Part shown: one piece after another, positions 1 through 57,602 of the stretch | How positions within the stretch are numbered: position 1 is the stretch's first letter | How the letters are laid out: each line of letters opens with the position of its first letter | Source of the DNA: Parachlamydiales bacterium | GTDB lineage: Bacteria > Chlamydiota > Chlamydiia > Chlamydiales > JAEYWL01 | Direction of reading: 5' to 3' | Length of the DNA: 64,000 nucleotides | NCBI GenBank assembly: GCA_020054065.1 | Contig: JAGVLX010000021.1 | Span: forward strand, 17,262 to 81,261 | Position numbers and translations under genes: made by a program | The notes under the pieces: model-generated | The model's database searches: none | Told to the model about the DNA's origin: nothing | What the model saw: the letters and a program-made list of their open reading frames with translations, nothing else

Positions 1-11
1 CTAATCATGGT

Positions 12-52
12 GGTGTTAACTTTCTAAATCATTTCTGATGAAAGTTAACACC
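12..52 (-). terminator. Stem-loop 3' of the 77..316 ORF
   Basis: Perfect 13-bp inverted repeat ggtgttaactttc (12-24) / gaaagttaacacc (40-52) with a 15-nt loop. It lies about 25 nt downstream of the minus-strand stop. No clear U-tract. Confidence 0.35.
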
Positions 53-76
53 GGTGTTTGTGTATTAACTACCACA

Positions 77-316
77 TTAGAAATTAGGGTTAGCATTTAG
101 ATTGTCTCCCTGATTTGTGGCAGGAGTATGCTGTAGATTCGAGTTTGTTCTTTTTGTATTCGTCTCATCTTCAGGATTATTGTTCTCCAACCTGGAATCG
201 TGCATGGAGTCAACCGCTCGTGTATCATTCTCCGAATTTCGTGGAGTAGAATTGATATTTGCTTGTAGGGTTCCCATCAGAAAAAAAGAAAACAAGATCA
301 TTAATCGCTTTGTCAT
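77..316 (-). CDS. Small secreted low-complexity protein (79 aa)
   Basis: ATG with GAGGTG 5 nt upstream. Signal-like N-terminus MTKRLMILFSFFLMGTLQA. The mature part is N/T/S/P/D/E-rich. No recognisable family. Confidence 0.45.
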   Translation of the reverse strand: MTKRLMILFSFFLMGTLQANINSTPRNSENDTRAVDSMHDSRLENNNPEDETNTKRTNSNLQHTPATNQGDNLNANPNF

Positions 317-328
317 TCTATCACCTCG

Positions 329-359
329 TTTATGCCGAGAGGTTATCTCTCGGCATAAA
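329..359 (-). terminator. Stem-loop between the 288-aa disordered-protein gene and the 79-aa gene
   Basis: Perfect 13-bp stem tttatgccgagag (329-341) / ctctcggcataaa (347-359) with loop gttat. It is 3' of the stop at 381. There is no U-tract, so it may be a stabiliser or processing hairpin rather than a strict terminator. Confidence 0.4.
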
Positions 360-380
360 CTTTATTAAAACATATCATTA

Positions 381-1247
381 TTATCGACCTTGACGATATC
401 TTCCTCTGCTTTGATCAGCAGTATTTTCATTTAAATCTTCGTCTTGATCCTCAGTATCTTCATCTAAATCATTTCCCTGATTATAATATTCTTGTCCGTA
501 GTTCCGTTCCGTGCCATAGGCATTTTCATCGCGATCTTCATCGAATGCGTCCTGATCTTCCTGACTCTGCCAACGACTATTTTTTCCCCAGTTTCCTCTT
601 CCTTCAAACTGAGAACGATTGCCCGAAGGTTCATTCCAATCTGGTTGCGAATCCCTTCCGTACCCTGAGTTCCCATATTGGCGGTTGCCGGAGGGTTCGT
701 TCCATTCTTGTGACCCCCTTCCATAACCTGTATTTTCATCTTGCCAATTGCCAGTATTTTGACTTCTCATTTGATTTCCACCGCGGTTACCCATGCGCTG
801 GCCTCCCGATCTTTGACTTCCTGAACGATTACCTCCACGCTGGGTGCCTGAAAGATTGCGCGATTGATTGCCGTAGTTTTGATTGTAATACTCATCTTGA
901 CTAGAAGAGCCTTGTCCATACCCTCCTTGGCCCCCTTGGCCTTCATTCCATTGTCTACCTTGTGTCCAAGAATCTTCTCCAGCATAGGATCTGCCGCCGC
1001 CCCAATCTGAACGAGCGTTCGAACGTCCATAGTTTGAGTTTTCATTATAGCCTCGCCCGCTTTTTCCGTAATTTACATCATTATCTTCAAGATCATATTC
1101 TCTTCCATAACGCGATTGGGATCCCGAGCGCATATCTTGCTGACGGCTTTGGTCACGTGAGCTCTGATTTCTGCCTCTTTGGGATCCTTGAGTTTGGTTC
1201 CCTCTGCTTTTAGAGGTTGAGCGAGAAGTTGAACGTCTAGTTGTCAT
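381..1247 (-). CDS. Intrinsically disordered G/N/Q/S/R-rich protein with interspersed Trp/Tyr, an RS-rich N-terminus and an acidic C-terminal tail (288 aa)
   Basis: Longest frame, with ATG and strong SD (AAGGAG, 6-nt spacer). Almost no aliphatic residues. WNEPSGNR occurs twice. Other frames in this region are low-complexity shadows. Confidence 0.7.
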   Translation of the reverse strand: MTTRRSTSRSTSKSRGNQTQGSQRGRNQSSRDQSRQQDMRSGSQSRYGREYDLEDNDVNYGKSGRGYNENSNYGRSNARSDWGGGRSYAGEDSWTQGRQWNEGQGGQGGYGQGSSSQDEYYNQNYGNQSRNLSGTQRGGNRSGSQRSGGQRMGNRGGNQMRSQNTGNWQDENTGYGRGSQEWNEPSGNRQYGNSGYGRDSQPDWNEPSGNRSQFEGRGNWGKNSRWQSQEDQDAFDEDRDENAYGTERNYGQEYYNQGNDLDEDTEDQDEDLNENTADQSRGRYRQGR

Positions 1248-1553
1248 ACCATGCTCCTTAGATTAAACATTAAAACCTATTTCTACTAAAGGAAGAGACC
1301 CGGAAACCTGCTCTTCTTTATAGAATTTATGAGGATCTTCCATATCCGGTGCAATCCTAAAAATTTCATGAAAAGTGAGGAAAAATTCCAAGCATTTAAG
1401 AATCAAAACGTGCAATAAAATGAAAATAAACGGGAGTTTTTATGCTATTTATTCCCGTTTTAGTGCGGATGGGAATGGTATCTTAGATATTAAAATTAAA
1501 TTTTAAAAAATTAAAATAATATTTATCATTAGGATTGTAACAAAAGGAGAATT

Positions 1554-1712
1554 ATGAGCCTCTACACACTACTGTTAATTATTCTTATTTTGATCTTAAT
1601 CGGAGCCTTGCCAACGTGGCCTTATAGTACTGGCTGGGGATATGGCCCAAGCGGATTGCTGGGAGCCATTGTTCTCATTTTATTAATCTTGATCTTACTC
1701 GGCAGAGTGTAG
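1554..1712 (+). CDS. DUF3309-like small membrane protein (52 aa), below the ORF-track cutoff
   Basis: ATG with AAGGAGA 4 nt upstream. Translation is MSLYTLLLIILILILIGALPTWPYSTGWGYGPSGLLGAIVLILLILILLGRV. The core PTWPYS.GWGYGPSG flanked by two hydrophobic helices matches my recollection of the DUF3309 family. A terminator follows. Confidence 0.65.
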   Translation: MSLYTLLLIILILILIGALPTWPYSTGWGYGPSGLLGAIVLILLILILLGRV

Positions 1713-1720
1713 ATTAAGAG

Positions 1721-1758
1721 AAAAAGGGAAAGAAGTTTTCACTCCTTTCCCTTTTTTT
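1721..1758. terminator. Bidirectional rho-independent terminator
   Basis: Stem aaaaagggaaag (1721-1732) / ctttcccttttt (1745-1756) with an A-run on one side and a T-run on the other. It sits between the convergent DUF3309-like and yciF-like genes. Confidence 0.6.
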
Positions 1759-1783
1759 ATCACGTAAAGACTTTCGCGCTAAC

Positions 1784-2314
1784 CTATCTACTAACTGCTT
1801 GAGCATTGATCCCTGAAGTAATCCAGTTACCCTCTGCTAGCTTTGTTAACGCTTTATTCGTTTTTCCTTCTTCATCTAAGATTTCTTGAAGATTCGACTC
1901 GACTTCTTCCAATCCTAAATGATGGGCAAAGGTTCTTAGGGTTCCATACGTTGCGATTTCATAGTGCTCAATTTTTTGAGCTGCACCAATTAAAGCCGCA
2001 TCTTCTACGAATGGTGGATACCGATGTTTAATCACTTCTTCAGATTCTTCTAAAAGACCTTTGATGGCTTCACATTCTTCTCCTTCAGGGTCTGCTCCTA
2101 AAAGTGAAAACACTTTCTCTAAGCGATCTTTCTGCCCTTTGGTTTCCGTTAAATGCTTTTTAAAAGCATCTTTCAGCTCTTTCGATTTAGCAGCCTCAAT
2201 CATTTTGGGCATATTTTTAACAATTTCAGTTTCCGCATTATAGATGTCTCTTAATTGGTCGAGAAACATCTCATAAAATTCATCGTAATGTTGACCATTG
2301 TTTTTTTTAACCAT
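1784..2314 (-). CDS. yciF: YciE/YciF-family ferritin-like stress protein (DUF892), 176 aa
   Basis: Aligns by eye along its whole length with E. coli YciF (for example DAALIGAAQKIEHYEIATYGTL versus DAALIAAAQKVEHYEIASYGTL). SD AAGGAGG. Confidence 0.85.
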   Translation of the reverse strand: MVKKNNGQHYDEFYEMFLDQLRDIYNAETEIVKNMPKMIEAAKSKELKDAFKKHLTETKGQKDRLEKVFSLLGADPEGEECEAIKGLLEESEEVIKHRYPPFVEDAALIGAAQKIEHYEIATYGTLRTFAHHLGLEEVESNLQEILDEEGKTNKALTKLAEGNWITSGINAQAVSR

Positions 2315-2347
2315 ACAATCCTCCTTGTGAGAGAGCGTACTAATATT

Positions 2348-2623
2348 TTAGAATCTTTTATTTTTTTGAGTAGGAACCTTATGTTCTTCCAAATCCTCAT
2401 CTAGATCTTCGAGAGGTTGATCACGATTGAACTTTTTTTCCCAAGTTGAAAGTTCGTTTTCAGCTTTCTCTTTGGTATAGCCGTAATATTTTTGCAATCT
2501 GCCTAACAGTTCTTCTCGTTTTCCATCAATTTGAGTAATGTCATCATCAGTGAGTTTCCCCCACTGTTGCTTGACTTTCCCTTTGAATTCTTTCCACATT
2601 CCTTTGAATGAATCTTTATTCAT
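2348..2623 (-). CDS. csbD: CsbD/YjbJ-family general stress protein (91 aa)
   Basis: Typical CsbD pattern: KGMWKEFKGKVKQQWGKLTDDDITQIDGKREELLGRLQKYYGYTKE. Confidence 0.85.
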   Translation of the reverse strand: MNKDSFKGMWKEFKGKVKQQWGKLTDDDITQIDGKREELLGRLQKYYGYTKEKAENELSTWEKKFNRDQPLEDLDEDLEEHKVPTQKNKRF

Positions 2624-2645
2624 ATAATCTCCTATTGGTTTTAAA

Positions 2646-3797
2646 TTAAGGTTTTAGAACGACTTTTAAACAACGATCTTGCTTATCATTAAAAATTTTA
2701 TATCCTTTTTTAGCATCGCTTAAGGGCAATGTGTGCGTAATGATGTCATCTAAAACCACTTTCCTTTCGCGAACTAAATTTGTTAATTCACTTAAACCAC
2801 TTGGCAATGGCACAGGTCCGGATTTCAATGTAAGGGCTTTATCAAATAATTGGCCTAAAGAGAAATTGGAATAGTTACCACCGTACACGCCAATAGCTGA
2901 TACAATCCCGCCTCGTCTTACGCCGCTCATAGCGGATTGCAACGCATTGATTGAACCCGCTTGTTGACCGAATGCATTAATCATTTTTTCCCAAAAACTT
3001 TGTTGCGCCTCTAATCCAACGGCATCAATGCACACATCCGCTCCCCGTCCCTCAGTCATTTCGCGTATTTTTTCCACCGCATTAACTTTTTTTGCATGGA
3101 TGGTTTCAGACTTAGCAGTTTGTTTTGCAAGATCTAATCGATAATCTAAAACGTCAATCCCAATCACCCTGCCTGCGCCTTGAAGCCAAGCTGCTTTCTG
3201 CGCCATAATCCCTACTGGGCCGCAGCCAAAGACAGCTACAGTCTCTCCGCCTTTAAGTTCACATCTTTCAACTGCCGCCCATCCTGTAGGAAAAATATCG
3301 GTAAGAAATAATACTTCTTCGTCTTTTAACTGATCATCAACCTTTATGACGCCAAACTTCGCCCAAGGGACGCGCACATACTCAGCTTGTCCCCCATCAT
3401 AATTTCCATTCCCTTCACCTAAACCGAACACTCCGCCACCCTTTTCTTTATCATTTCCTTCGGGCCCATAGTGATGGTTCGTATTTTGGCAGTGTGGAGG
3501 CAATCCATGCGCGCAGAAATAACATTGCCCACATCCGATGATGCAAGGAACGAGGACTCGATCCCCCTTCTTTACATGGGTGATGTTTTTACCGACTTCC
3601 TCGACAATTCCCATGAATTCATGACCCAAATGAATGGGTTTTTCAATGGGAAACAGTCCATTATAGAAATGGAGATCCGTTCCACAGATGGCGGTTGAGG
3701 TGACCTTAATGATCATATCGTTAGGCTTTAAAATGGTGGGATCTGGTACTTCCTCCACTTCAACTTTTTTGGCCTTATGAATCACGACAGCTTTCAT
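2646..3797 (-). CDS. Zn-dependent alcohol/formaldehyde dehydrogenase-like (MDR family), 383 aa
   Basis: Catalytic-Zn motif GHEFMGIVEEVG, structural-Zn cysteines CGQCYFCAHGLPPHC, and Rossmann motif VFGCGPVG. Confidence 0.85.
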   Translation of the reverse strand: MKAVVIHKAKKVEVEEVPDPTILKPNDMIIKVTSTAICGTDLHFYNGLFPIEKPIHLGHEFMGIVEEVGKNITHVKKGDRVLVPCIIGCGQCYFCAHGLPPHCQNTNHHYGPEGNDKEKGGGVFGLGEGNGNYDGGQAEYVRVPWAKFGVIKVDDQLKDEEVLFLTDIFPTGWAAVERCELKGGETVAVFGCGPVGIMAQKAAWLQGAGRVIGIDVLDYRLDLAKQTAKSETIHAKKVNAVEKIREMTEGRGADVCIDAVGLEAQQSFWEKMINAFGQQAGSINALQSAMSGVRRGGIVSAIGVYGGNYSNFSLGQLFDKALTLKSGPVPLPSGLSELTNLVRERKVVLDDIITHTLPLSDAKKGYKIFNDKQDRCLKVVLKP

Positions 3798-3806
3798 AGT
3801 GTATCC

Positions 3807-4142
3807 TTATTGCTGTGGATTTGTGGCTTTATTTTCAGTTTTCTTGGGTGTCTGCTGATCAAAGGGTGAGTGGCTTTTATTTTGATCTTTCAAAATCGCA
3901 TTTTGGGAAGGAGTATCAGGACTAGTGGGAGTCGGGATCGAAGAGTGGTATACGTCTTTTATCTGAATGTTAGTATCATTAGAGGTTTTTGGGGTACTCA
4001 TAGTTTGTTCAGAAGGCGTAAATCCATAATTATTAGGGTTTGCTGGTGATAAATTTTCATACTTTTGAGTATGCGGATTATACTGATCTGCATAAGAATG
4101 GAACGTGAGCGCGATAAATAGGGCGGATAAAATAAATTTCAT
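3807..4142 (-). CDS. Small secreted low-complexity protein (about 111 aa from the internal ATG)
   Basis: The ORF is open to 4178, but the ATG at 4142 (AGGTG upstream) starts a signal peptide MKFILSALFIALTFHSYA. The mature part is P/T/S/N/Q-rich, similar in character to the 77..316 product. Confidence 0.45.
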   Translation of the reverse strand: MKFILSALFIALTFHSYADQYNPHTQKYENLSPANPNNYGFTPSEQTMSTPKTSNDTNIQIKDVYHSSIPTPTSPDTPSQNAILKDQNKSHSPFDQQTPKKTENKATNPQQ

Positions 4143-4150
4143 ACACACCT

Positions 4151-5305
4151 TCAAGGTTTTAAGACAACTTTGACACACTCTTCATCTTTATCATTAAAGA
4201 TTTTGTAAGCGTGAGAGGCTTTGTCCAAGGGAAGTTTATGACTGATGATATCGTGAAGAACCACTTTTTTCTCTTTAACTAGTTTTAGCAGGGTATCAAT
4301 GTAATGATGTACAGGCGCTTGACCTGAACGTATCGTAATTCCCTTATCAAAAATTTGACCCAGGGGAAAATCTGAAAACTTTGTCGCATAGACGCCCAGA
4401 ATGGAAACAGTGCCGCCCCGACGAACAGCACTTAAGCAGTTCGTAAGCACTTTCATGGTTCCACCCTCTTGTTTAATTGCGCCTTTCGTTTTTTCATAAA
4501 TAGTTCGATCCGCTTCCATTCCTACAGCATCTACACAGACATCTGCTCCCCGGCCTTCTGTGATATTTCTTATCATTTTGATGACGTCATCTTGGTTATA
4601 GTTAAACGTTTCAGAATTAGCTGTTTTTTTAGCCATTTCCAACCGATAGTCTAAAATATCAATGCCGATGACTCTTCCGGCTCCATTTAACCATGCCGCT
4701 TTTTGCGCCATAATGCCTACCGGACCGCATCCAAAAACCACAACCGTTTCTCCACCTTTTAAACGTGCCCAATCAATTCCTGACCAACCCGTGGGAAAGA
4801 TATCAGTTAAAAAAAGCACTTCTTCATCGCTTAAATCATCATCAATTTTTCTTGGGCCTACGTCTGCATAAGGAACTCTCACATACTCTGCTTGGCCCCC
4901 ACTATAACCCCCGTATAGGTCTGTATAACCAAAAAGAGCGCCTCCTTTTTCTTTTTCGTCTCCTTCAGGTCCATACATTTCTGGATTTGAATTTTCACAA
5001 TGACCAGGCAAAGAGTGATGACAAAAGAAACACTGCCCGCAAGCAATAGGAAAAGGAACTACGACACGGTCCCCTTTCTTTAAATTTTTAACATTTTTAC
5101 CCACCTCTTCGACGATCCCCATAAACTCATGACCTAAGACCATCGGCTTTTTTTGAGGGATAAATCCGTTATAAATATGAAGATCTGATCCGCAAATGGC
5201 CGTTGAAGTCACTTTCAAAATGACATCATTTTCATCTTCGATTTTGGGATCAGGAACATGATCAACTTGAACTTTTTTTGAACTATGGAATACCAACGCC
5301 TTCAT
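4151..5305 (-). CDS. Zn-dependent alcohol/formaldehyde dehydrogenase-like, paralog of 2646..3797
   Basis: Same motifs as its paralog (GHEFMGIVEEVG, CGQCFFCHHSLPGHC, VFGCGPVG). Well over half of positions are identical to the neighbour by eye. The ATG at 5305 (GGAG upstream, MKALVFH parallels MKAVVIH) is preferred over the TTG at 5335. Confidence 0.85.
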   Translation of the reverse strand: MKALVFHSSKKVQVDHVPDPKIEDENDVILKVTSTAICGSDLHIYNGFIPQKKPMVLGHEFMGIVEEVGKNVKNLKKGDRVVVPFPIACGQCFFCHHSLPGHCENSNPEMYGPEGDEKEKGGALFGYTDLYGGYSGGQAEYVRVPYADVGPRKIDDDLSDEEVLFLTDIFPTGWSGIDWARLKGGETVVVFGCGPVGIMAQKAAWLNGAGRVIGIDILDYRLEMAKKTANSETFNYNQDDVIKMIRNITEGRGADVCVDAVGMEADRTIYEKTKGAIKQEGGTMKVLTNCLSAVRRGGTVSILGVYATKFSDFPLGQIFDKGITIRSGQAPVHHYIDTLLKLVKEKKVVLHDIISHKLPLDKASHAYKIFNDKDEECVKVVLKP

Positions 5306-5363
5306 ATCTTTACTCCGTACTTGATTTAGACTCAAGCTGACTAAAAAACAAAGTGTTAGGTAA

Positions 5364-5389
5364 TGACATGGCAGCGTGCTGCCATGTCA
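5364..5389 (-). terminator. Rho-independent terminator after the BON-domain gene
   Basis: Palindrome tgacatggcag-cgtg-ctgccatgtca, followed on the minus strand by a T-rich run (ttgtttttt). Confidence 0.5.
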
Positions 5390-5406
5390 AAGAAAAATAG
5401 TGGGAA

Positions 5407-6051
5407 TTATCTATTGACTGTGACTTGGTTATTAACGGCTTTGACGCCATCAATTTTTTTAATTTCGTTGGTGATGTATTGAACGTCGGAGTCTTTATCC
5501 ACTAAACCCGTTACTGTCACATTCCCATTGCTGGTATTGAGTTGAATATTTTTATACCCTTTCGTAAACCAGCCATCGCCTAACTTTTCGCGGATTTGTT
5601 TATTGATACGGCGATCGGCATCGGTTGCCGCAGTATCTAGTGAAGATTTTGTGTCTGTGTCTGTGTGGTTAGCAATATAGTTTCTATTGCTTTGATTATT
5701 ATAGGAAGACTTAGGAGCCACATTGATTTGATTGATGACATTCACCACGCCATCCACTTTTCTGACTTTATCTTCAATTTTTTGTTTTTCATCTTGCGTA
5801 TCTACCGAACCTCTTAAGGTTACGGTGCCGTTGACCACATCTGCCGTGACGTCTTCATAGCCTCTGGAAAACCAACCCGATTTGAGGTTGTCTTGTATCT
5901 CCTTGCGAATTTTAGCATCGTTGCCATTTGTGGTTTGGGTATTGCCATTGCTATAAGAATTGCTATTGTTGCTGTAAGTATTGTAAGCTGCTTGTACAAC
6001 TCCGAATTGCGCAATCAACCCGATTGCAGCTAGAAGACCTATTTTTTTCAT
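5407..6051 (-). CDS. Secreted OsmY-like protein with two BON domains (214 aa)
   Basis: Signal peptide MKKIGLLAAIGLIAQFGVVQA. Two repeats of the BON pattern (V.NGTVTLRGSVD...KV.GV..V.NQ..V). SD AGGAGG. Confidence 0.85.
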   Translation of the reverse strand: MKKIGLLAAIGLIAQFGVVQAAYNTYSNNSNSYSNGNTQTTNGNDAKIRKEIQDNLKSGWFSRGYEDVTADVVNGTVTLRGSVDTQDEKQKIEDKVRKVDGVVNVINQINVAPKSSYNNQSNRNYIANHTDTDTKSSLDTAATDADRRINKQIREKLGDGWFTKGYKNIQLNTSNGNVTVTGLVDKDSDVQYITNEIKKIDGVKAVNNQVTVNR

Positions 6052-6070
6052 AAAAACCTCCTGTGGAATT

Positions 6071-7660
6071 TTATTTTATAGGTTTAATTTTACTCTCTTT
6101 TTCTTGTTCAACATTCACTTTTTCTAAGCCATGTAAAGCTGGGCCGCATAAAACTTCACCATTCACATCAAAGCGGGATCCATGACATGGACAATCCCAC
6201 GAGTTTTCAATGGGATTCCAATGAACTTCCCCATTGAGATGCGTACATCTCGCTGAAAGTGGATACAGGTTTCCTTGGTGATCTTTGTAAACAGCAATCT
6301 TATGGATGCCATTTTGAATCACGCTTCCCGTGCCGCGCTCTATTTGATCTTCATGATGACATTTTTCGGGTGTGATCCAATCTAGATATTGATTAGCTGT
6401 ATTCAAGTTTTCTTCAAAAAAGCTACCCATTGCATTGAGCGTTTTGCGAGAAGGGTCATAAATTTTTTCCCATGGGTTTGCTCTTGCCATGATCAAATCT
6501 GTTATTAATAGTCCTGCTATCGTGCCATGCGTTAATCCATTTCCTGAATCGCCTGTTCCGATAAACACGTTCTTAGAATCAAGGGGATTACGTCCAATAA
6601 ACGCGAGCGAATCAACCGGTTCTAAAATTTGTCCTGACCATTGGTAGGTGATTTCCTTTAATGCGGGAAACCGTTGCTTTGACCAATTTTTTAGATTTTG
6701 AAACCGTTCTTCATACTCGTGATCTTGACCTGTACGCGTATCCTCTCCTCCAATTAACAGCATAAAATGGGTCGCAAAATCTGGATCTGTCGACGACAGC
6801 TGACAGACTCTAATATAATGATAAGGATCGCCAGTATCCCAGTAGAGTCCTTTAGAAATATCTGTTCTGGGTATTTTTCCTCCAATCACATAGGTTCTAT
6901 AAGCCGCCTGTTTGGTATGAATGACAAAGCGGTCATTGATGGGACTGTTGGTTGCGACGATCAGATATTTGGATTTTATCTTATGTCCATGGCTCGTTTT
7001 AACTAGACAAGAGCTTTCATCATTTTCAAAAGAATCGGCAGAAGTAAAATTATAGATCAACCCTCCTTGTCTCGTGATTGCGCCTGTCAATCCATTTAGA
7101 TATTTGACCACATCAAATTCAGCTTGATTGGGAAAAAAGATGCATGGCCCTGTATCAAATGATTGGATGGGAGCCCGCTGAACAATTCTTGCCGCAGATA
7201 AATTGAGTTGATGAAGGGCATCTAATTCTCTACTTAATGTTTCAGGTTTATCGTCGGCATGAAGAAAAAGGTAACCATTAACGCGTTCAAAATCACAATT
7301 AATTTTTTCATCTAGGATAATTTGTTCAATACGATCCACGGCGGTGCGGTGGCTTTCCAACGCGAGCTGAGAATTTGCAACTCCAAAAAGATCGATCAAA
7401 TCATAGAAGCGGTCATCTAATGCATAGGTCAAATGTCCAGTTGTACGGAATGTTTCCCCGCTTCCAATTTCGCCATCATCAAGAACAACGACCGAAACGC
7501 CCTCTTTGGAAAGAAAATAGGCGCAGCTAAGACCTGTAATTCCTGCGCCTACGATGCAAACATCAGTTTCTAAATCTTGCTCTAAAGCAGGAAATAACTT
7601 AACTGTGTTCGTTCCCTTCCAGAACGATTTTGTACCCAACTGCTCTTGTTTCATAATCAT
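6071..7660 (-). CDS. FAD-dependent oxidoreductase with C-terminal Rieske [2Fe-2S] domain (about 527-529 aa)
   Basis: Dinucleotide-binding motif VCIVGAGITGLSCAYFL. Rieske motif CTHLNGEVHW...CPCHGSRF. The architecture resembles B. subtilis YhfW. The second ATG (7654) has the better SD spacing. Confidence 0.8.
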   Translation of the reverse strand: MIMKQEQLGTKSFWKGTNTVKLFPALEQDLETDVCIVGAGITGLSCAYFLSKEGVSVVVLDDGEIGSGETFRTTGHLTYALDDRFYDLIDLFGVANSQLALESHRTAVDRIEQIILDEKINCDFERVNGYLFLHADDKPETLSRELDALHQLNLSAARIVQRAPIQSFDTGPCIFFPNQAEFDVVKYLNGLTGAITRQGGLIYNFTSADSFENDESSCLVKTSHGHKIKSKYLIVATNSPINDRFVIHTKQAAYRTYVIGGKIPRTDISKGLYWDTGDPYHYIRVCQLSSTDPDFATHFMLLIGGEDTRTGQDHEYEERFQNLKNWSKQRFPALKEITYQWSGQILEPVDSLAFIGRNPLDSKNVFIGTGDSGNGLTHGTIAGLLITDLIMARANPWEKIYDPSRKTLNAMGSFFEENLNTANQYLDWITPEKCHHEDQIERGTGSVIQNGIHKIAVYKDHQGNLYPLSARCTHLNGEVHWNPIENSWDCPCHGSRFDVNGEVLCGPALHGLEKVNVEQEKESKIKPIK

Positions 7661-7717
7661 CCTAGACTAGCATTTGGAATGCTGGTTTTTACTTTGAAAG
7701 GTCTAAAAGCATTCGGC

Positions 7718-7798
7718 TTAAATAATGCCCAATAGTTTTAGAATGATGAGTACAGAGAGAGGAACCCCAAGAAGCCACAAAATTAACATTCTGCCCAT
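7718..7798 (-). CDS. Possible 26-aa hydrophobic peptide (MGRMLILWLLGVPLSVLIILKLLGII)
   Basis: ATG with GAGGT about 6 nt upstream and a single TM-like helix. It resembles small stress-island membrane peptides. It is too short for codon statistics. Confidence 0.3.
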   Translation of the reverse strand: MGRMLILWLLGVPLSVLIILKLLGII

Positions 7799-8164
7799 AC
7801 GTCTACCTCGTTGTTTCTCTCGACTATAAAGATACACGGGTTTCTATCAAAATATTTTTTTAAACTGAGGCGAATTTATTAACTTTATATCACTACAGCA
7901 TCCACACTTAATTGTGGATGGAGAATAAAAAAATACAATAAACGCTCCCGTTTATTATTTTTATTAAAAAAACACCATTAATACTCCCTTTTTATTTTTA
8001 CTTAAAAATTTACTTAGTCTGAGAGAGTTGATAATAGGCCTTCCGTCGCCCTCACTTTTTTGATTGCGATTTTATGTTTGGGATCACATACGTATATTCA
8101 AGAAGGATACGAATTTTCGTTTGCCTTTTAGCTAACGAATTGTAACAAATTAAGGAGGACTCTC

Positions 8165-8824
8165 ATGCCTACAAGAAAATCCTCAAATCGTTCGCGCCAA
8201 TTAACTGGACGCGGATCCCCCACTACCTCGAGACAAGCTTCCACTCCCAACCGTGGAAGGACGTCTGCGCAGAAAAATACAACTTCAGGGCGATCTTCAA
8301 CACAACGGGGACAAACAAATCGTTCTAATGCTCAAGGCGGAAATCGCTCCCAAAGTAGAAGTCGTCAAGAATCCGGTAGAACGGGAACATCGCGTTGGGA
8401 ACGAGACGATGAAAATAGGATGGATCAAAGTGGTCGTGGAGGAACTCAAAGAAGAGCGCAAAATGTAACAGAAAATAGACGTGGAAGTAACGTGAACACG
8501 CGTGGCAGAAACTTTGGTTATGAAAACCCAGGCAGACAGCGTCCAAGAAAAGACACAGAAAGAGCGCAAGATCGCTTCCAACAAACTGAAAGACAAAACG
8601 CGCAAGGAAGAAGAAATCCTGAGTTTGGTCAATACGATATTGAATTTGAAGAGGATTTTCAAGAAGAGAGAAATCCGCGCCAAAGAGGCGAGATGCGCAG
8701 TCAAAACCAGCGTTCGGGGAGACAAGGACAAGAAACGGGCTGGGGCGAATTAAGTGAAGAATATGATGAAGAGGGCGAGTATACTCCTTCAAATAGAAGA
8801 ACTGCCTCTAGTCGCAGAAGATAA
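8165..8824 (+). CDS. Intrinsically disordered R/S/T/Q/N/G-rich protein with an acidic C-terminal region (219 aa), paralog-like to 381..1247
   Basis: ATG with AAGGAGG 6 nt upstream. The N-terminus MPTRKSSNRSRQ parallels MTTRRSTSRSTS of the 288-aa protein. A strong terminator follows. Confidence 0.7.
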   Translation: MPTRKSSNRSRQLTGRGSPTTSRQASTPNRGRTSAQKNTTSGRSSTQRGQTNRSNAQGGNRSQSRSRQESGRTGTSRWERDDENRMDQSGRGGTQRRAQNVTENRRGSNVNTRGRNFGYENPGRQRPRKDTERAQDRFQQTERQNAQGRRNPEFGQYDIEFEEDFQEERNPRQRGEMRSQNQRSGRQGQETGWGELSEEYDEEGEYTPSNRRTASSRRR

Positions 8825-8844
8825 AATGAAATTCCCATGTTGGT

Positions 8845-8882
8845 CGGAAAAATGACTTAAGTCATTTTTCCGATTTTTTTTA
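8845..8882 (+). terminator. Rho-independent terminator
   Basis: Perfect 28-nt palindrome cggaaaaatgactt/aagtcatttttccg (8845-8872) followed by a T-run (8874-8882). Confidence 0.7.
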
Positions 8883-8890
8883 AGGGCTTT

Positions 8891-9757
8891 ATGAAAACAG
8901 AAAAAAAGACAAAGAAGAGAAAACCTCAACACCAGCGTCCCCCTGGCATCCAATCCAAAATGCAGCCCATCCCGCATCCCGAAAAAGATTCATCCAGAGG
9001 AAGTGACAAGCTTTTAAATAAAGTAGCGATCATCACGGGAGGAGACAGCGGGATTGGAAGAGCAGTCGCGGTTGAATTTGCCAAAGAAGGGGCAAATGTC
9101 GTTGTCGTTTATTTAAAAGAGCATGCTGATGCAAAGGAAACGCAAAAATTAGTAGAGCAAAAAGGAAGAGAATGCCTTTTAATCTCTGGAGATGTGGGGA
9201 AAGAATCGTTTTGCAAAACGATTGTTCACCAAACAATCCAACAATTCGAAAAAATCGATATTCTTATTAATAATGCAGCAGAGCAGCATCCTCAAAAATC
9301 TCTTTTAGCGATTACTGAAAAGCAACTTGAACGGACATTTAGAACGAATATCTTTTCCTATTTCTTTTTGACTAAAGCAGCGTTGCCGCATCTTCAAAAA
9401 ACACGTGGTGTCATCGTTAACACCACATCTGTCACGGCATATCGCGGAAGCGATCACCTATTAGATTATTCAGCAACGAAAGGAGCCATTGTTTCCTTCA
9501 CACGGTCGCTCTCTCTTGCGCTTATAGATAAAGGAATACGAGTAAATGGAGTAGCCCCTGGACCGATTTGGACACCACTCATTCCTTCTACCTTTCCCCC
9601 GAAAAAGGTAGCGACATTTGGTTCCGATGTGCCCATGAAACGAGCGGGAGATCCTTCAGAAGTCGCTCCCTGTTATGTTTTTCTTGCTTCGGATGATTCT
9701 TCATATATCTCCGGACAGATTTTGCATCCTAATGGCGGCGAAATCATCAACACCTAG
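8891..9757 (+). CDS. SDR-family oxidoreductase of the YghA/YdaD/YhdF (general stress protein 39) type, 288 aa
   Basis: N-terminal PPGIQSKMQPIP, TGGDSGIGRA, YSATKGA and a C-terminal region all align by eye with E. coli YghA. Confidence 0.9.
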   Translation: MKTEKKTKKRKPQHQRPPGIQSKMQPIPHPEKDSSRGSDKLLNKVAIITGGDSGIGRAVAVEFAKEGANVVVVYLKEHADAKETQKLVEQKGRECLLISGDVGKESFCKTIVHQTIQQFEKIDILINNAAEQHPQKSLLAITEKQLERTFRTNIFSYFFLTKAALPHLQKTRGVIVNTTSVTAYRGSDHLLDYSATKGAIVSFTRSLSLALIDKGIRVNGVAPGPIWTPLIPSTFPPKKVATFGSDVPMKRAGDPSEVAPCYVFLASDDSSYISGQILHPNGGEIINT

Positions 9758-10196
9758 TCGTCATCTGAAAAACATGAATTGTTTTTGATCGAGCATCAGC
9801 GAGATCCCAGACTATTTGTGCCGGGCTTGCAGCCCTCGACCAAATTTTTGATCTGCATCCCAGCCCTGCACTCGCTTCGCACGTTTGGACTGGGCTATAA
9901 AACTGCCGGACCTTCGGTCCTCATGAATCGCGAGTTTCTTGCAGATTCCAGAGCACCGCAGGGGCGGTCATTTGCTCTGACTGGTACTCTTTCACTCGTG
10001 CCAACTCCGAAGGTCCGAAGGACCGACAATTTTAAAGCCTAGTCCGCAGTGAGCGTAGCGAACGGAGGGCTAGGTAAAAGATAAAATCGGATTGAGCCCT
10101 GTAAGGACGGCACAAAGACAAACCCTCACTGAATTAGCTTGATGCGTATGTGCAGAGCACCGTACTCCAAAAGTACGCTGCGCGCACGGTAAATGT
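9758..10196. repeat. Hairpin-dense, comparatively GC-rich non-coding block at a convergent gene junction
   Basis: Many local stems (ggacc-ttc-ggtcc, ggtcc-gaa-ggacc, accgc-aggg-gcggt, cgtact-ccaaa-agtacg, cctag...ctagg). Also an 11-nt long-range inverted repeat cggaccttcgg (9907-9917) / ccgaaggtccg (10007-10017). Confidence 0.5.
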
Positions 10197-25260: not shown

Positions 25261-28200
25261 ATGGAACCAGCCCCTGGTACTTTCCACCCACATCAAATTT
25301 CGCCTCCTCCTGTAGCAGCAGTTCAATCTGCGCCGCAAAGGCGACATAAAAACCACCATGTCCCCCGCCAACCCCGCTACACACCTAAGTACAAACCCAC
25401 CGATCAAATCAAAGCAACAGCTAACGACTGGGGTCTCACACGTCCTAACGGTCAATTGGAACAGAGGTTATTCGACACAGTTGGAACCATCCCGCTCGTG
25501 CCAGAAGAGGTGGAGCGCGTCAAGCAGGTCGTTCTTGAAAGAAAAGTTTCTGTTACCTACAAAACGTTTTCTTTTAACACCTCCTTCCTGATCAAAGAAG
25601 TCCTAAATCATATCAATGAAAATATCGTCAAAAAAGGGAAGGGCAGTACGAAGGAATTATTTGAGCAATTCTATTCGGCAGGCTCGGTTAACCTTTCAGC
25701 GACGGGTTTAAGCTACGCCCAGAGAACCTTTAAAGAACTTCTTAAAAAACACTTCTCTCAAGAGCCAGATGATGCCATCGAAGGCAGACTAAAGGTTCTA
25801 TTTACAAACTTGTTAGTCGATTTTTTGAAGCTTAACTACGCCCAGTCAATCACGGATATCGACATTCAAGGGTTGCTCTTGCGCATGGAAAATATTCCAC
25901 CGAATTTTCTTTATGCAGTAAATCAATACTATACTGATTTTGTCCAATCGAAAATTCCCCCCATTCTAGATCAAGAATCGCGTAAAAAAGCCCTAGAATT
26001 ATTAAAAAAGAAAATTCCCGATAAAGATAAAAACTTCGATTGGCTGACTCTGGAGCATCCTCAATTTGAATGGCATGTTGTCAACAACATTGGTTTTGAA
26101 AAAGTGAAGGTCGTGCCAAACACCTATGGCATTGTTGCATTTGGAACCCGGGGGACTTTGACGGTCGACTTTTTAACCGATTACCTTCGCGAGCCTGTCG
26201 ACCGCTTTCCCACCATGCGCATCCCTATAAAGGCACTATTGGGTAGCGCGCAAGCGAATCGGGTGCCGCACATTGTCCCTGAAGGGAAGTTTGTCATTCA
26301 ATGTGTATTGGATGAAGTGTTTGGAGTGTATAGGCCATTGATGCATAAGCGGGATGCTTATATCGCCTCCGATTACAGCTTCAAAAAATTATTAAAAACA
26401 TCTGTAAAAGGGAAGGTGTGTGTTTCAAAACGTGAGGGCGACTACACCACAATCGATGAACTGTACCATGCCGCATCTAATGAATCACAAAATCCTGACA
26501 ATTCCGTTGTAAAAAAAATATTAAAAAAGCACCCGAACTATTTTGGAGAGTTTGATAAGCAACAATGGTTATTTTTCTATCACATGCTGAAAGATACCGA
26601 CTTGCTTTATGACCCTTGTTCAGCGATTGCGGTCACGTACAACACCTGCAAGATTTTAGATGGACGTCTTCCGCCGGAACAAATCACCAAGCTCATCGAT
26701 AAATTAAAGAAATATTGGGCAAAAGTTCCAGCTGGTGAACAAGAGAAATCTGTCATTTACGCTATTGGAAAGCTTCTTTGCGACCATTCTACCCCCTTAA
26801 AAACAAGAATGGCATTAATAAACGTCTGTGCTTTTATGTTTTGCCAATCGAACATCTTAGGGCAAACCGACTATTCAAAGGTCGTTGTCTATCCCCGTTC
26901 AAACGGAACTGAAGCGCTTTCAGAAATCTCCCTCCCGGGAGGAAAAAACCCCTACACCCTTCAAACCAGCGCCGCCCACATCAATTCTGATCTCAGTGCG
27001 GTACTCACCTATCTAAGGTCGCCACTAAGTGAAGAACAACAGCGTCTCATTCAAAGAGTCATCAAAGGGTTATTCCCCCACTTGCCGTTTCCTGCAGCCG
27101 GTCAATCCCAGATGGCTGCTGACCTGCCATTTTTCAAAATCAACTATGCGCTATTTGAGAAAGCTGCCACGGACTGCCTAAACGATGCTAATCATACACT
27201 TAGATTATTCGGCCGAACCCTATACTTAGGCTTCCAATCCATGTCTAGGGGAAATCCATCCCCCTACCCCCTCTTATTAAATCTATTTGAACTGACTGGG
27301 GATTGGGAATTTGAAAATTTAAAACTCAATATTCAATCTCTCGTAGGATTTAATGCGAACGACCCGGTCTTTGAATCCTTAAAACCGATGAACGTCGCCC
27401 ACCAAGATTCAGCCACTCATGCTCCTGTTTCTGTTTTAATGCAAGCGTTAGCAAGATTGCCTAAACATGCAGCGGTCGCTTATGGGCTCTGGCAAAAAAA
27501 AATCGTAGACTCCTCTTCAAACAACGCTTTCTTTAAACTTGATTCAACCCTGGCTTTGTTCAAAATTTTCCAATCCGATCAAATCGGATATGCCCTTAGC
27601 GTACTAGGCTATGCAGCTGAAAGTAAAATCATTAACGTGGAAACGCAGATCTTGTGGCTTAACCAAATCATTAATTTACTTACACGACGTCCTGAAGAAA
27701 TTCCCATTCACATGCCGCGAATCGAACTGATCGCCCGGGCCCTAGGAGAGCGAACAATCACCCTCACAGAGCGCGGACAACTTTATGAAGCCTTAAGGTT
27801 AACTCCGGTCCATTCCCGTTCGTATCATTTCACACAGCTCGTGAAATCATTGGCTCCTGTACAAAAGGTGACGTCTGTTTCTCCTCCGCCTATTACAGCG
27901 ATGATGGCAGCTCCGATGGCGTTCATCACGCGCAGCACGATTCTTGCTTCGCCTCCGCCCGCCCCAGCCAGCGAAGGCAGTTCCAAATCATCATCCACCC
28001 CTACTGATTCAACACCCGCGGCAACCTTAGGGTCTGCGACGCCAAATGTGACTCCTCCGACGGTCATCGAAGTCATGAGACCGCTAACGCCGGGTGGATC
28101 GAGCGGATCACGGCGCGCTAAAAAAGCGATGGAAGCCGTTTCACAGCCCTTCCCCAACATCGGGGCAGCGCCTGCTGACGAAAAGAAAGTCGAACCAAAA

Positions 28201-31200
28201 CCTGTTACACCGCCACCAGAGCCTCCTAAGGAGAGCTCGATTCCTGGAGCTTACGCTCAAGCTCTCAAGAATGGGGCAGCCAAAACCCCCCAAGCCGCGA
28301 AGCCAGCAGCCCCAAAAACAACACCCACTCCGGCTCCCAAGCAGCCGCTTAAACCGGAAGCTAAAAAAGAGGCTCCTCCGGCTGCGGCTGAACCTAAGCC
28401 TCCGGCTGCCAAGATGGAGACGGTTCAAAAAACAGCAACCGTTTCGAAAGTGATCGTGGTTGAAGATCCAAAAGCGTACTTTAAAAAGAAAATCGCTGCC
28501 GTTTTGGAACTAGCCAAGAAGGACGCCTCACAGGCATGTTTTGAATTAACGGCGTTGATCAAAAGCAACCCCAAAGAGAGCGATCTGCTTCCAGCTGTAG
28601 AAGCCGTTGTTCAGTCTCTTTTAGAGAGTTCGTTATTTTTGACCGCACACAAGTTTTTGAAGTGCGCCGAATGTCAAAACCTCTATCAAACTCATCGAAC
28701 AGTCTATTATGCGCTGATTTTGAAAACAGCAGAATCGCTTAAGACAATGCTCACGCCTGAGCGGTTCAACGAAATTCAAGGAATAATCACCGATTTAACC
28801 GAATTCCTCATGAAGCTGATCGATCAAAATAAAGGGAACGAACTCACTTCAGCGCAAGCCTGTTCTACCATTGTCCTCATCGATTTGGCTGTATTTTCCG
28901 CCAAACAAGCTTCTAAACCCCTCACACCTGCTTTTGAAAAGTGCATTGCAAGAATTTATCCATGCCTCACGGCACTGGTGCAAAAAAATCCGCTGCATGC
29001 ATGCCTATTGCACCGGACAATGGTGCATACTGGCCAAAGAGCTGCGCTTGCTCCGCAAGCGGTTGTCCAGCTTCCTTCGCACCTGAAAGCCCTCTTAAGC
29101 AGCCAGCTCCCCACCGATCAGTTGGCCGTTGTTGCAGACGTTATGAATCAGCTTGAAGAGGAAGATCAAGTCAAGAAGCAGCCCGAATGGATCGAGGTCT
29201 TAAAATCAATCGCTCTAAAAGCCGCAACGACCAATCAACAAATTAAATATTTAACCCAGCTCATCCATTTAGCCAAGATCGATGAAGAGATCATGGAGTT
29301 GTTATTCAAGTGTCTTGAGCAGGCATTTGGAAAGGGAAACTCCGTGGAAGGGATATGGATCCTTGCGTTATTCCCTGCTTCCCATACCATTCAAATGAAG
29401 CCGCAATGGTTAGCGATTTATCTCCAATTTTTGGAGCGGTTACACATCACGAATCAGACCGATACTCTGATTGATGCCATCCGTAAAAATCCCTTCCCCT
29501 TAACCAGCGAAAACCGTACAAAGCTCCAATCGGCAATTAACGGCTATGTAGATGGATGCGCAGCGGCGAACGATCTTTCTGCGGATCAACTCATCGCTTT
29601 AATGGCCTTGTTGGAACTCTATCGCAATCCACATTACAAAACGTGGATGCGTATTGCGACTCGAGCTTTAGGCAGCGCCAACGGAAAAGCTGTGGAGGCG
29701 GTATGGAGACAGCTTCCATCCCTCACATCGCCATCAAGCCCCTTCAAATCCCGTGAAGCCCGCGAAGAGCTCGATGCCCTTATCTTACGCGCCGCCTCAG
29801 CCTTAAAATTTTGTCCGGCTGACGTTTTGCATAAAATTTTGGAGGATGATTCATCCTTAAGGCGTTTTGCCGAACTGCTGCCGCCGGAACAACGTGCTTC
29901 TCTGATCAGTTCGATCTTAGAATTATGGATCAACGTGCTGCGCCAGTCTAAAGAGGATGCCGCAGTCGAATGTTATCGGACAATTATTGAGTGGGGCATC
30001 CGCTGGAATCCCCTCGTTTGTAGCGCCCTATCCCCCTATGAACAAATTCGGTCCCCCCTATGCCTATTAGAATCCATCGCCAAAAGGAGCGACACTGTTC
30101 TCTTTGCACAAGCGATCGAGGAAGTCCGCAAGTTGGAAGAAACGATGGGAAGAATCGATAACAGTTCACCCCTGCGCGCCCACTACTGCGACATCCTAAC
30201 CGCATTGATCAACACCTGTGTGAGAATTAAAGATGAAGAGTACTCGCGAATGAAGAAACTCGATTTTGTTCAAATGTGCTTAAAATTTAAGTTGGAACCC
30301 GCCGTACTCATTAAGTTTCTACCCCTTTTCAATGAGTGGATCCCTAAGCCAGGCGGCGTTGCTTCAGATCCGCGTGTCTCAGAACGGATGGTGCCCATGG
30401 CTCTAGCTGTTGTTGAGAGATTTGTCAGCGAGCCCGCAGATGTACGGATAAATCGTAGCCAAATGAACTGTTATCCGTTGATCTCGCAAGCTTGTGAAGT
30501 GAATTTGGAACCGGATGCCGTCGATAAGTGCTACGCCATTGCCTTCAATGCCCGTTCTGAACTTGTCATGGCTCCTCAAGACCGTCATCGGATGTGTTGC
30601 GGGTTAGTATCCCGGAAATTAATCCCTGCAACCCAATCCGAGAATCCATCGGACTGGACCGCCGCAATCGCCTTTTACGAACAGCACCTCGATTATTTAA
30701 GAACCTACCCGGACAACTTCAAGGAAGTTCTGAACCATTTTACAAAATTATTAGTCTCGATTGCCATTTTTCATAAGAAATTTGAATACTTAGAAAAATC
30801 TTTCACAGCCTTGAATGAGAAAAAAGCGGCTGTAGATCAATCCAGGAATGGCGATCAGATCAAACAATTTGATGCCTACTATTTTAACTTCCTATTTTCC
30901 ATTATTCGCGCTAACAGCGAAATTATTCCCCTCATCAACACCGTTTCTAGTGAAGGGGTAAGGCTTATGGCAGACCATCACATTGAGGTCATGATGAAGA
31001 ATCTTAAACTTCTCATTGAACGGCAACGGCCGTTTTCTGCCGAAGAAATGGATGTAGTGGTTCACTGGGTGGCCGCTCTTTTAAGCCGGGAACCTAGATT
31101 GCCCTGCTTGACAGGGATGGAGGAACCTCCAACGAATTTTAGAAGCTCAAGCTCCTATCAACAAGCGATCGCTCTCCTCCAAGTCTTGCGAGAGTCTTCC

Positions 31201-55356: not shown

Positions 55357-55379
55357 TCAACATTCTTTGGAGTTGAGCA

Positions 55380-57545: not shown

Positions 57546-57602
57546 CGGTTTTGGGCCTGCCTGCCATGACAGGGTAATCACCTGTGAAGCACTGGAGGTG
57601 CT

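Follow-up and report, generated by a model that had tools for sequence, protein, structure and literature searches.

Among the described systems that resemble the locus reported here is the sigma-S-dependent yciGFE locus, whose product YciG is a KGG-repeat hydrophilin; the operational definition of hydrophilins is cited in the same source (PMC5437024). In Acinetobacter baumannii, the proteins DtpA and DtpB both aid desiccation tolerance and DtpA protects enzymes from heat and drying; the stress-gene cluster of these two proteins also encodes KatE, and expression drops in a bfmR mutant (PMC13552118, PMC13232832). The locus analyzed in this work lies in a stretch of 64,000 nucleotides (nt), hereafter the window, from contig JAGVLX010000021.1 (positions 17,262 to 81,261) of a Parachlamydiales bacterium (assembly GCA_020054065.1). 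The subject of the analysis is a gene for a protein of 288 amino acids (aa), hereafter the target, situated at one end of a cluster of general-stress genes that includes a yciF homologue. An earlier interpretation made from the letters alone (the sequence-only reading) had described the product as a disordered protein of the sticker-and-spacer type, as in eukaryotic FUS, next to yciF. The best-supported reading of our results is that the target is a lineage-restricted positional analogue of YciG without KGG motifs, and we give about an even chance to its being a monocistronic, cytoplasmic, disordered hydrophilin-type protein of a general-stress/water-deficit island, with a putative function as a protectant.

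Like the YciG/KGG hydrophilins, known from the yciGFE locus of E. coli and Salmonella, the target is of small to medium size, Gly-rich, extremely hydrophilic, of the disordered type and encoded beside yciF (DUF892) in a general-stress cluster. Unlike them, it lacks a KGG motif and aligns with them no better than composition would give, it is rich in Trp and repeats the unit WNEPSGNR, and its gene is downstream of yciF with a DUF3309 gene in between. The resemblance to DtpA and DtpB lies in the presence of two disordered hydrophilins in one stress-gene cluster, the second one here being the protein named IDP2; the phylum and the regulators differ. DtpA and DtpB supply an experimental precedent for desiccation tolerance and, in the case of DtpA, for enzyme protection.

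Evidence that the target is a real gene

Related strains were taken from Logan assemblies, L163 being run SRR28285590 and L002 run SRR17413116. L163 was reached through an 86%-identical homologue of a 79-aa neighbour of the target (window 77..316), and an intact 290-aa orthologue of the target, present as a called gene with 89% identity, was found there at 291..1163. The three indels that separate the two proteins are all in frame and the N- and C-termini are invariant, with the first 22 residues and the C-terminal tip unchanged. The Shine-Dalgarno sequence and 250 nt upstream of the target are also conserved in L163. The ratio of non-synonymous to synonymous substitution rates (dN/dS) was 0.13 (Nei-Gojobori, 284 codons, 55 synonymous and 36 non-synonymous differences), the two alternative frames giving 1.49 and 1.42. 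The constraint was even along the protein, with values of 0.18, 0.10, 0.14 and 0.11 for residues 1–48, 49–130, 131–228 and 229–288, and by this measure it is comparable to that of the bona fide neighbour genes (yciF 0.01, CsbD 0.02, SDR 0.07, DAO-Rieske 0.12 and OsmY 0.19). Judged by its pattern of substitutions, the target open reading frame (ORF) is a real gene under frame-specific purifying selection. The sequence-only reading had held the gene to be genuine, and the intact orthologue and the low dN/dS bear this out; the conservation of a different frame, which it had considered as a refutation, was checked and selection was found in the annotated frame only. The near-consensus Shine-Dalgarno sequence that it had noted was also found in place (Table 1). 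The hairpin that follows the stop codon has a folding energy of −23.8 kcal/mol (z = −5.8) and no U-run on the minus strand, and is likely to be the transcript end or a stabiliser.

A broken copy of the target, which had been missed previously, was found in L002. It shows a 623-bp deletion, covering the upstream region and the 5' half of the gene, plus a 1-nt deletion in a G-run at about L002 8404. The deletion junction (L002 8276..8315 against L163 70..692) has a 2-nt microhomology, and the remainder of the target region matches the intact copy of L163 at 98.9% identity. An assembly artefact was considered as the source of the lesion and judged less likely, the microhomology being too short for the collapse of a k-mer graph and the G-run lesion being a second, independent one. 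From the assembled sequence, a real deletion with recent pseudogenisation is more likely, and a chimeric contig is possibly the cause. With an intact and constrained gene in the window and in L163 and these lesions in L002, selection maintains the gene in two of the strains, the third carrying an apparently inactive copy.

Searches for homologues

No homologue of the target was detected in a word-indexed search of 5.8 billion protein clusters, and an exhaustive phmmer search of 1.84 billion representatives returned one match only, a spurious one to a 1112-aa repeat protein. No close relative was found in tblastn-confirmed scans of GTDB genomes and JGI metagenomes, and no relative in a DNA-level scan of plasmids; tblastn of the target against 162 yciF loci recovered only the L002 fragment. 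The target scores 585 bits against itself in a local phmmer run, yet it is absent from the protein collection. The same was true of all seven disordered proteins that were looked up (the target, IDP2 and its L002 homologue, which is listed there as a called gene, and four others, one of them from a RefSeq Chryseobacterium genome), while ordinary neighbours were present. Since all seven are absent, the lack of a homologue in protein databases is uninformative for such proteins, and low-complexity proteins may be systematically missing from the collection.

Composition, charge blocks and disorder

The target contains 48 G, 36 S, 35 R, 34 Q, 32 N, 23 D, 20 E, 18 Y, 12 T, 8 W, 5 A, 4 M, 4 L, 3 K, 3 P, 2 F, 1 V and no I, and the recount of Leu, Val, Ile, Trp and Tyr was identical to the earlier one. 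Its matrix is formed by G (16.7%), S (12.5%), R (12.2%), Q (11.8%) and N (11.1%), the residues I/L/V/M/A/F/C make up 6% of the total, and 28 residues are aromatic. The whole protein is net acidic, with an isoelectric point (pI) of 5.15. The protein has MTTRRSTSRSTSKSRG at its N-terminus; Ser/Thr account for 44% of the first 25 residues, which contain no acidic residue and, Met apart, no hydrophobic one. No hydrophobic N-terminal segment was seen when the sequence was read, which makes Sec export unlikely.

The charged residues, 28% of the total, are strongly segregated in comparison with shuffled sequences (sequence charge decoration, z = −6.2; kappa-type delta, z = 4.0), and the target is a blocky polyampholyte of four main segments (Table 1). 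The Arg/Ser-rich N-terminus and the acidic C-terminal tail reported earlier were both recovered, with net charges of +9 (residues 1–48) and −19 (residues 229–280, 5 aromatics), the latter being followed by a tip of net charge +4 with 1 aromatic (residues 281–288); an RGG-like stretch free of aromatics occupies residues 126–167. The strong charge-block architecture as such had gone unremarked. The unit WNEPSGNR occurs twice, as had been claimed, at residues 182 and 204, and this longest exact repeated k-mer of 8 exceeds the maximum of 7 found in shuffles (n = 2000). WNE occurs three times, which was reached in 0 of 5000 shuffles, and YG ten times against 3.0 expected (0 of 2000 shuffles); NYG was found 4 times against 0.34 and SR/RS 18 times against 8.7 expected from shuffles (p ~0.0015). 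Several features of the target therefore go beyond what is expected from composition only. No tandem repeat was detected at the DNA level by Tandem Repeats Finder.

The thresholds for hydrophilins, reportedly set by Garay-Arroyo et al. in 2000, are a Gly content above 6% and a mean hydrophilicity index above 1 (a Kyte-Doolittle grand average of hydropathy, GRAVY, below −1). With 16.7% Gly and a GRAVY of −2.09, the target passes both and is thus a hydrophilin in the compositional sense, in agreement with the type of composition proposed earlier. AlphaFold2, run on the single target sequence, gave a mean predicted local distance difference test score (pLDDT) of 43.7, a predicted template modelling score (pTM) of 0.13 and zero secondary structure, which fits the disorder claimed in the sequence-only reading and is weak evidence when taken alone.

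The KGG motif (PF10685) is an acidophilic repeat of about 22 residues, of the type GFASMDxxxxxxIxxKGGxxS. It was not found in the target at E ≤ 1 or at E ≤ 10, in scans that did detect it in the loci L053, L117, L148 and L111. No LEA or CsbD model matched the target either, zero Pfam families being found at E ≤ 10; the CsbD domain of this region belongs to the neighbour gene at 2348..2623. Searches of Pfam and NCBIfam (E ≤ 1–10) and of PDB sequences gave no match and no recognisable RNA- or DNA-binding domain. The earlier statements that KGG repeats are absent and that no described family was recognised for the protein were thus upheld. The suggested functional resemblance to the chlamydial histone-like proteins was not supported: Hc1 and Hc2 are Lys/Ala-rich and basic, and the target has 1.0% Lys, 1.7% Ala, the acidic pI given above and no match to a family model.

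Sticker-and-spacer pattern

The spacing of the aromatic residues was not more even than in shuffled sequences (coefficient of variation of the gaps 0.94, against 0.90 ± 0.16), the largest aromatic-free gap being 43 residues, and with aromatics not evenly spaced a strict sticker-and-spacer pattern fails. No enrichment over composition was found for [GS]Y[GS], nor for RG (8 against 5.9 expected) or RGG (2 against 0.96). The comparison between the window and L163 gave a different picture for conservation: changes were seen in 1 of 28 aromatics and 1 of 38 Arg/Lys residues, against 10 of 48 Gly, 9 of 48 Ser/Thr, 6 of 66 Asn/Gln and 4 of 43 Asp/Glu. Taken together, Y/W/F/R/K changed in 2 of 66 positions and the other residues in 32 of 222 (Fisher p = 0.009), and the same test on IDP2 and its L002 orthologue gave 2 of 57 against 23 of 161 (p = 0.03). 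Each protein is represented by a single strain pair and the test was picked after the data had been seen, so the conservation of stickers is treated as suggestive. The FUS-like architecture proposed in the sequence-only reading was therefore retained in one part, the better conservation of Y/W/F/R/K, and not in the even spacing or the motif enrichments.

In common with FUS and hnRNPA1, the target has a G/S/N/Q matrix with about 10% aromatics and much Arg, a Tyr-rich segment that precedes an RGG-like one, and aromatic and Arg residues that are better conserved than the spacers. It differs from them in its non-uniform spacing, its unenriched [GS]Y[GS] and its high proportion of charged residues in segregated blocks; moreover, it is bacterial, shows no homology to them and has no RRM or zinc finger.

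Disordered proteins beside yciF in other genomes

A total of 160 loci around yciF homologues were fetched and their ORFs screened by composition. In at least 11 of the 160, a hydrophilin-type ORF of 200–290 aa adjoins yciF, and four of these have a Pfam KGG match. Loci with long proteins of this kind (L117, L148/L151, L136, L111/L129, L053, L021, L069 and L135) are mostly of the Bacteroidota type, in which the disordered ORF usually lies immediately upstream of yciF and co-oriented with it, as does yciG in E. coli. This recurrence of similar disordered proteins beside yciF in other phyla had not been noticed before. In the long proteins, KGG motifs occur both at the N-terminus and internally and are accompanied by blocks of Asp/Glu/Tyr and by Ser/Gly/Arg tails; in L021 and L135 the motif is degenerate or lost. 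The proteins of L021 and L136 are unambiguously homologous (z = 14–23) and neither has a Pfam KGG match; an N-terminal stretch of KGG type is visible in L136 and degenerate in L021, which indicates that KGG motifs decay within a family. From their sequences, these long yciF-adjacent proteins look like an uncharacterised extended YciG-like class. They share with the target a start of the type M-x-T-R-x-S, acidic Tyr-rich and Gly/Ser/Arg-rich blocks, and a basic tip resembling RGR, and the target may be related, though with great divergence, to the long proteins with KGG motifs that flank yciF.

Smith-Waterman alignments of the target with eight yciF-adjacent disordered proteins of the Bacteroidota type, several of which carry KGG motifs, remained within the range of shuffled sequences (z from −0.35 to 2.4). 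The sole alignment beyond composition-preserving shuffles was obtained with a 273-aa disordered protein from an uncultured Chlamydiae metagenome-assembled genome (MAG), encoded at 7701..8522 of locus L004 in a BON-CsbD-YciF island (z ~3.3, empirical p ~0.004, marginal after correction for ten comparisons; BLASTP E 0.028 as a single comparison). The phylum and the island type (BON-CsbD-YciF, the disordered protein, BON-BON) are shared with the target, and this protein resembles the target in length, in its basic RS/T-rich N-terminus, in its middle part rich in YG, N and Q, and in its basic tip. It differs in having no acidic tail and no WNEPSGNR, and in a possible degenerate KGG-like stretch, SEAGRKGAAARWG, that is not scored by Pfam.

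The stress island and IDP2

The minus-strand island consists of genes for a DAO-Rieske oxidoreductase, OsmY, a Zn-dependent alcohol dehydrogenase, a 123-aa ORF, a second Zn-dependent alcohol dehydrogenase, CsbD and YciF, in that order; past YciF lie the plus-strand DUF3309 gene and, at one end of the island, the target. The CsbD, YciF, DUF3309 and OsmY genes all fall within 5 kb (Table 1). The closest relatives of the yciF product are found in Waddliaceae and uncultured Chlamydiae MAGs, with 50–53% identity. The target lies 537 nt from yciF on the same strand, with DUF3309 in between, and this adjacency gives context and no proof of KGG/YciG membership. The arrangement seen in the sequence-only reading, recalling yciG-yciF, stood as far as the presence of a nearby yciF is concerned (E 3e-52) and did not stand in its order, the target being downstream and separated by DUF3309.

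IDP2, a second disordered protein not mentioned previously, is encoded at the other end of the same island. Its N-terminus, MPTRKSSNRSRQ, resembles that of the target, and it has an acidic C-terminal part bearing Phe and Tyr and a basic tip; it has no Pfam match. Compared with its 262-aa orthologue in L002 (1079..1867), it shows a dN/dS of 0.21 and a 44-residue in-frame indel, and by this ratio it is under purifying selection. A canonical terminator follows the gene at 8844-8873. Paralogy between the target and IDP2 was not demonstrable from protein sequence (BLASTP E 2.2, z = −0.2), the two having in common only their general layout and a 29-nt upstream element. Both copies of this element lie about 180–210 nt upstream, in the same orientation relative to their own gene, and the exact 12-mer core CTCCCGTTTATT is found only at these two sites within the 64 kb. 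The element could be a remnant of a duplication, a weak hairpin or a common regulatory site (an operator or part of a promoter). Before IDP2, at about 7984, it recurs in a more degenerate second copy, the only one that L002 has. Nothing convincing was found among Rfam RNA elements in 1..10000. The G+C content of the island is 0.40 against 0.45 in the window, a difference too weak to argue for horizontal transfer.

Table 1. Positions in the window of the target, its segments and signals, and the genes and elements of the stress island.
Feature	Position	Strand	Basis or remark
Target coding sequence, stop codon included	381..1247	minus	ORF listing; 288 aa, ATG start
Residues 1-48: basic Arg/Ser/Thr/Gln (RS-rich) block, net +9, pI 12, 1 aromatic	1104..1247	minus	composition
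Residues 49-130: Tyr/Trp/Gly/Asn-rich block, mildly acidic, net -4, 12 aromatics, recurring NYG	858..1103	minus	composition
Residues 131-228: basic block, net +5, 9 aromatics; RGG-like start, then Trp repeats	564..857	minus	
Residues 229-288: acidic Asp/Glu/Tyr tail, then basic tip SRGRYRQGR	384..563	minus	
Tandem pair of ~22-residue units GYGR-x-SQ-x-WNEPSGNR, residues 174-217	597..728	minus	both units kept in L163
Shine-Dalgarno sequence AAGGAG, 6 nt ahead of the target ATG	1254..1259	minus	read from sequence; conserved in L163
Hairpin, perfect 14-bp arms (15 pairs in scan), 20 nt past the target stop	328..360	unassigned	
29-nt upstream element, target copy, 178 nt ahead of ATG	1425..1453	minus	conserved in L163
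29-nt upstream element, IDP2 copy	7928..7956	plus	83% identity to target copy
DUF3309 small membrane protein, between target and yciF	1554..1712	plus	Pfam PF11752, E 2.9e-20
YciF/YciE-like ferritin-like protein (DUF892)	1784..2314	minus	Pfam PF05974, E 3.4e-52; source name YciE
CsbD/YjbJ-like general stress protein	2348..2623	minus	Pfam PF05532, E 3.5e-19; NCBIfam PRK10428
OsmY-like protein, two BON domains	5407..6051	minus	Pfam PF04972, E 3e-27; source name OsmY
IDP2, second disordered-protein gene, 219 aa	8165..8824	plus	other island end, divergent orientation

Interpretation of the target

As a hydrophilin-type protectant, the target would act when water activity falls and the cytoplasm crowds: the opposite charge blocks and contacts of Arg with Tyr and Trp would let target chains associate with one another and coat other macromolecules. 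The target would then be a molecular shield or a gel-forming matrix that limits aggregation, as has been shown for other hydrophilins, and such a role would suit a chlamydia associated with amoebae during its extracellular stage. We infer induction by stress, the mode of protection and a descent from YciG-like proteins. Several observations weigh against this interpretation. The definition of a hydrophilin concerns composition only and is silent on mechanism, and a low pLDDT from one sequence, fitting as it is, says little by itself. Homology to YciG/KGG proteins is not statistically secure, nine of the ten comparisons of the target not exceeding shuffles and the tenth being marginal after correction for multiple tests. 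The target is downstream of yciF and split off from it by an opposite-strand gene, and not upstream and co-oriented as yciG is. Finally, the apparently inactivated copy indicates that the target is dispensable at least in the L002 strain.

An unlikely alternative is that the target binds nucleic acids or other polyanions (RNA, DNA or polyphosphate) through its RS-rich head and RGG-like middle, acting as an RNA chaperone, as a compaction factor of the hibernation type for nucleoid or ribosomes, or as a scaffold of ribonucleoprotein condensates in a stressed or dormant stage, with the acidic tail as an auto-regulator. The head is indeed strongly basic (pI 12, net +9 over residues 1–48), RGG, RSGG and RGG follow one another within about 35 residues of the segment 131–167 without aromatics, Arg/Lys residues are nearly invariant between strains (1 of 38 changed), and a location in a stress island is compatible with such a function. 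Charge blocks also drive RNA-dependent condensates in other bacteria, an example being the C-terminal domain of RNase E in Caulobacter. However, RG and RGG are not enriched, the whole target is net acidic, no nucleic-acid-binding domain was found in it, its 1% Lys sets it apart from the Lys-rich Hc1 and Hc2, and no genes of nucleic-acid metabolism are adjacent. The view that the target is secreted as a type III effector whose low-complexity domain is eukaryote-like, its polar, acid-free, Ser/Thr-rich N-terminus serving as secretion signal, appears very unlikely. In an amoeba, such a Tyr/Arg/Gly-rich protein would partition into host ribonucleoprotein granules or perturb them. SctU, SctV and SctW as well as eukaryote-like RasGEF and BTB/LRR proteins are encoded in the window, the first 25 residues of the target have the Ser/Thr content and the lack of acidic and hydrophobic residues described above, and the target, like many effectors, is disordered and confined to its lineage, with its gene lost in one close relative. 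Against this, the locus is a stress island of cytoplasmic and periplasmic proteins and not an effector or chaperone locus, similar proteins occur in the L004 stress island and in free-living Bacteroidota without such hosts, and known secretion signals do not typically show so extreme a richness in Arg.

That the target has no function at all, being a chance ORF, a pseudogene in decay or junk that is translated and has a biased composition, is hardly credible. It would agree with the lack of a curated family or structure match, with the lack of homologues in protein and DNA-level searches, and with the broken copy in one related strain, but the dN/dS of 0.13 holds over the full length and in this frame only, the three indels are in frame, and the Shine-Dalgarno sequence, the upstream region and both termini are conserved, while the negatives from protein databases weigh little. 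The selection test rules this reading out as far as sequence can.

Going beyond the role of a protectant, the target, IDP2 and the L004 protein might be bacterial condensate scaffolds of the FUS type, although we regard this as decidedly unlikely. Conserved Arg/Tyr/Trp stickers, freely drifting Gly/Ser/Asn/Gln spacers and opposite charge blocks would in that case, perhaps with the help of RNA, drive the cytoplasm to gel or vitrify reversibly as the cell becomes dormant and extracellular; fast-evolving disordered proteins would be a conserved but so far unrecognised component of yciF/CsbD islands across phyla, of which KGG/YciG would be only the detectable tip.

If the interpretation as a protectant holds true, environmental chlamydiae would own hydrophilins that belong to no family, and a molecular handle on the survival of infectious particles outside amoebae would be at hand. 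With its 288 residues, clear charge blocks and 28 aromatics, the target is also a compact natural system in which to ask whether eukaryotic sticker-and-spacer rules hold in bacteria. Disordered proteins adjacent to yciF recur in several phyla but evolve too fast to be linked by sequence searches, and synteny combined with composition is at present the only way to find them. This general lead, that of fast-evolving disordered proteins accompanying yciF/CsbD islands across phyla, may outweigh the single target protein; the searches and the collection used miss them.

Additional features of the window

The window lacks two genes that both related strains possess, as seen when window 7675..7963 is compared with L001 105..1083 and L002 2356..3346: one encodes a BON-domain protein of 120/124 aa and the other a 201-aa protein with no Pfam match. 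The gene content of the stress island therefore varies between close strains. The two Zn-dependent alcohol dehydrogenases of the island are paralogues (2646..3797 and 4151..5335, both on the minus strand), their genes lying 1505 nt apart as direct repeats D1/D2 of about 76% identity, with the 123-aa ORF, which is polar, between them. In L002 the counterpart of 4151..5335 appears as three gene calls (74, 150 and 222 aa), suggesting that this copy, too, is decaying there.

The 79-aa protein encoded at 77..316 (minus strand), next to the target, has a signal-peptide-like start and a polar body rich in Asn, Thr and Asp; its dN/dS against the L163 homologue is 0.22, and it has no family match. Between the DAO-Rieske operon and IDP2, a 26-codon ORF at 7718..7798 (minus strand) encodes a peptide that by eye is very hydrophobic, MGRMLILWLLGVPLSVLIILKLLGII, and that may be a small membrane protein, like DUF3309.

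Elsewhere in the window, genes for SctU-SctV-SctW were found at 54289-58763 in the order known from chlamydial type III secretion, together with a rpsA-nusA-infB block; these genes and the RasGEF and BTB/LRR proteins agree with the chlamydial origin of the window. A RasGEF-domain protein and a BTB plus LRR protein are encoded on the minus strand at 47549..49828 and 49942..51435, and an ORF for 2335 aa without a Pfam domain occupies 25261..32268 on the plus strand. By their sequence features, the products of these three genes are typical candidate effectors of amoeba-associated chlamydiae.

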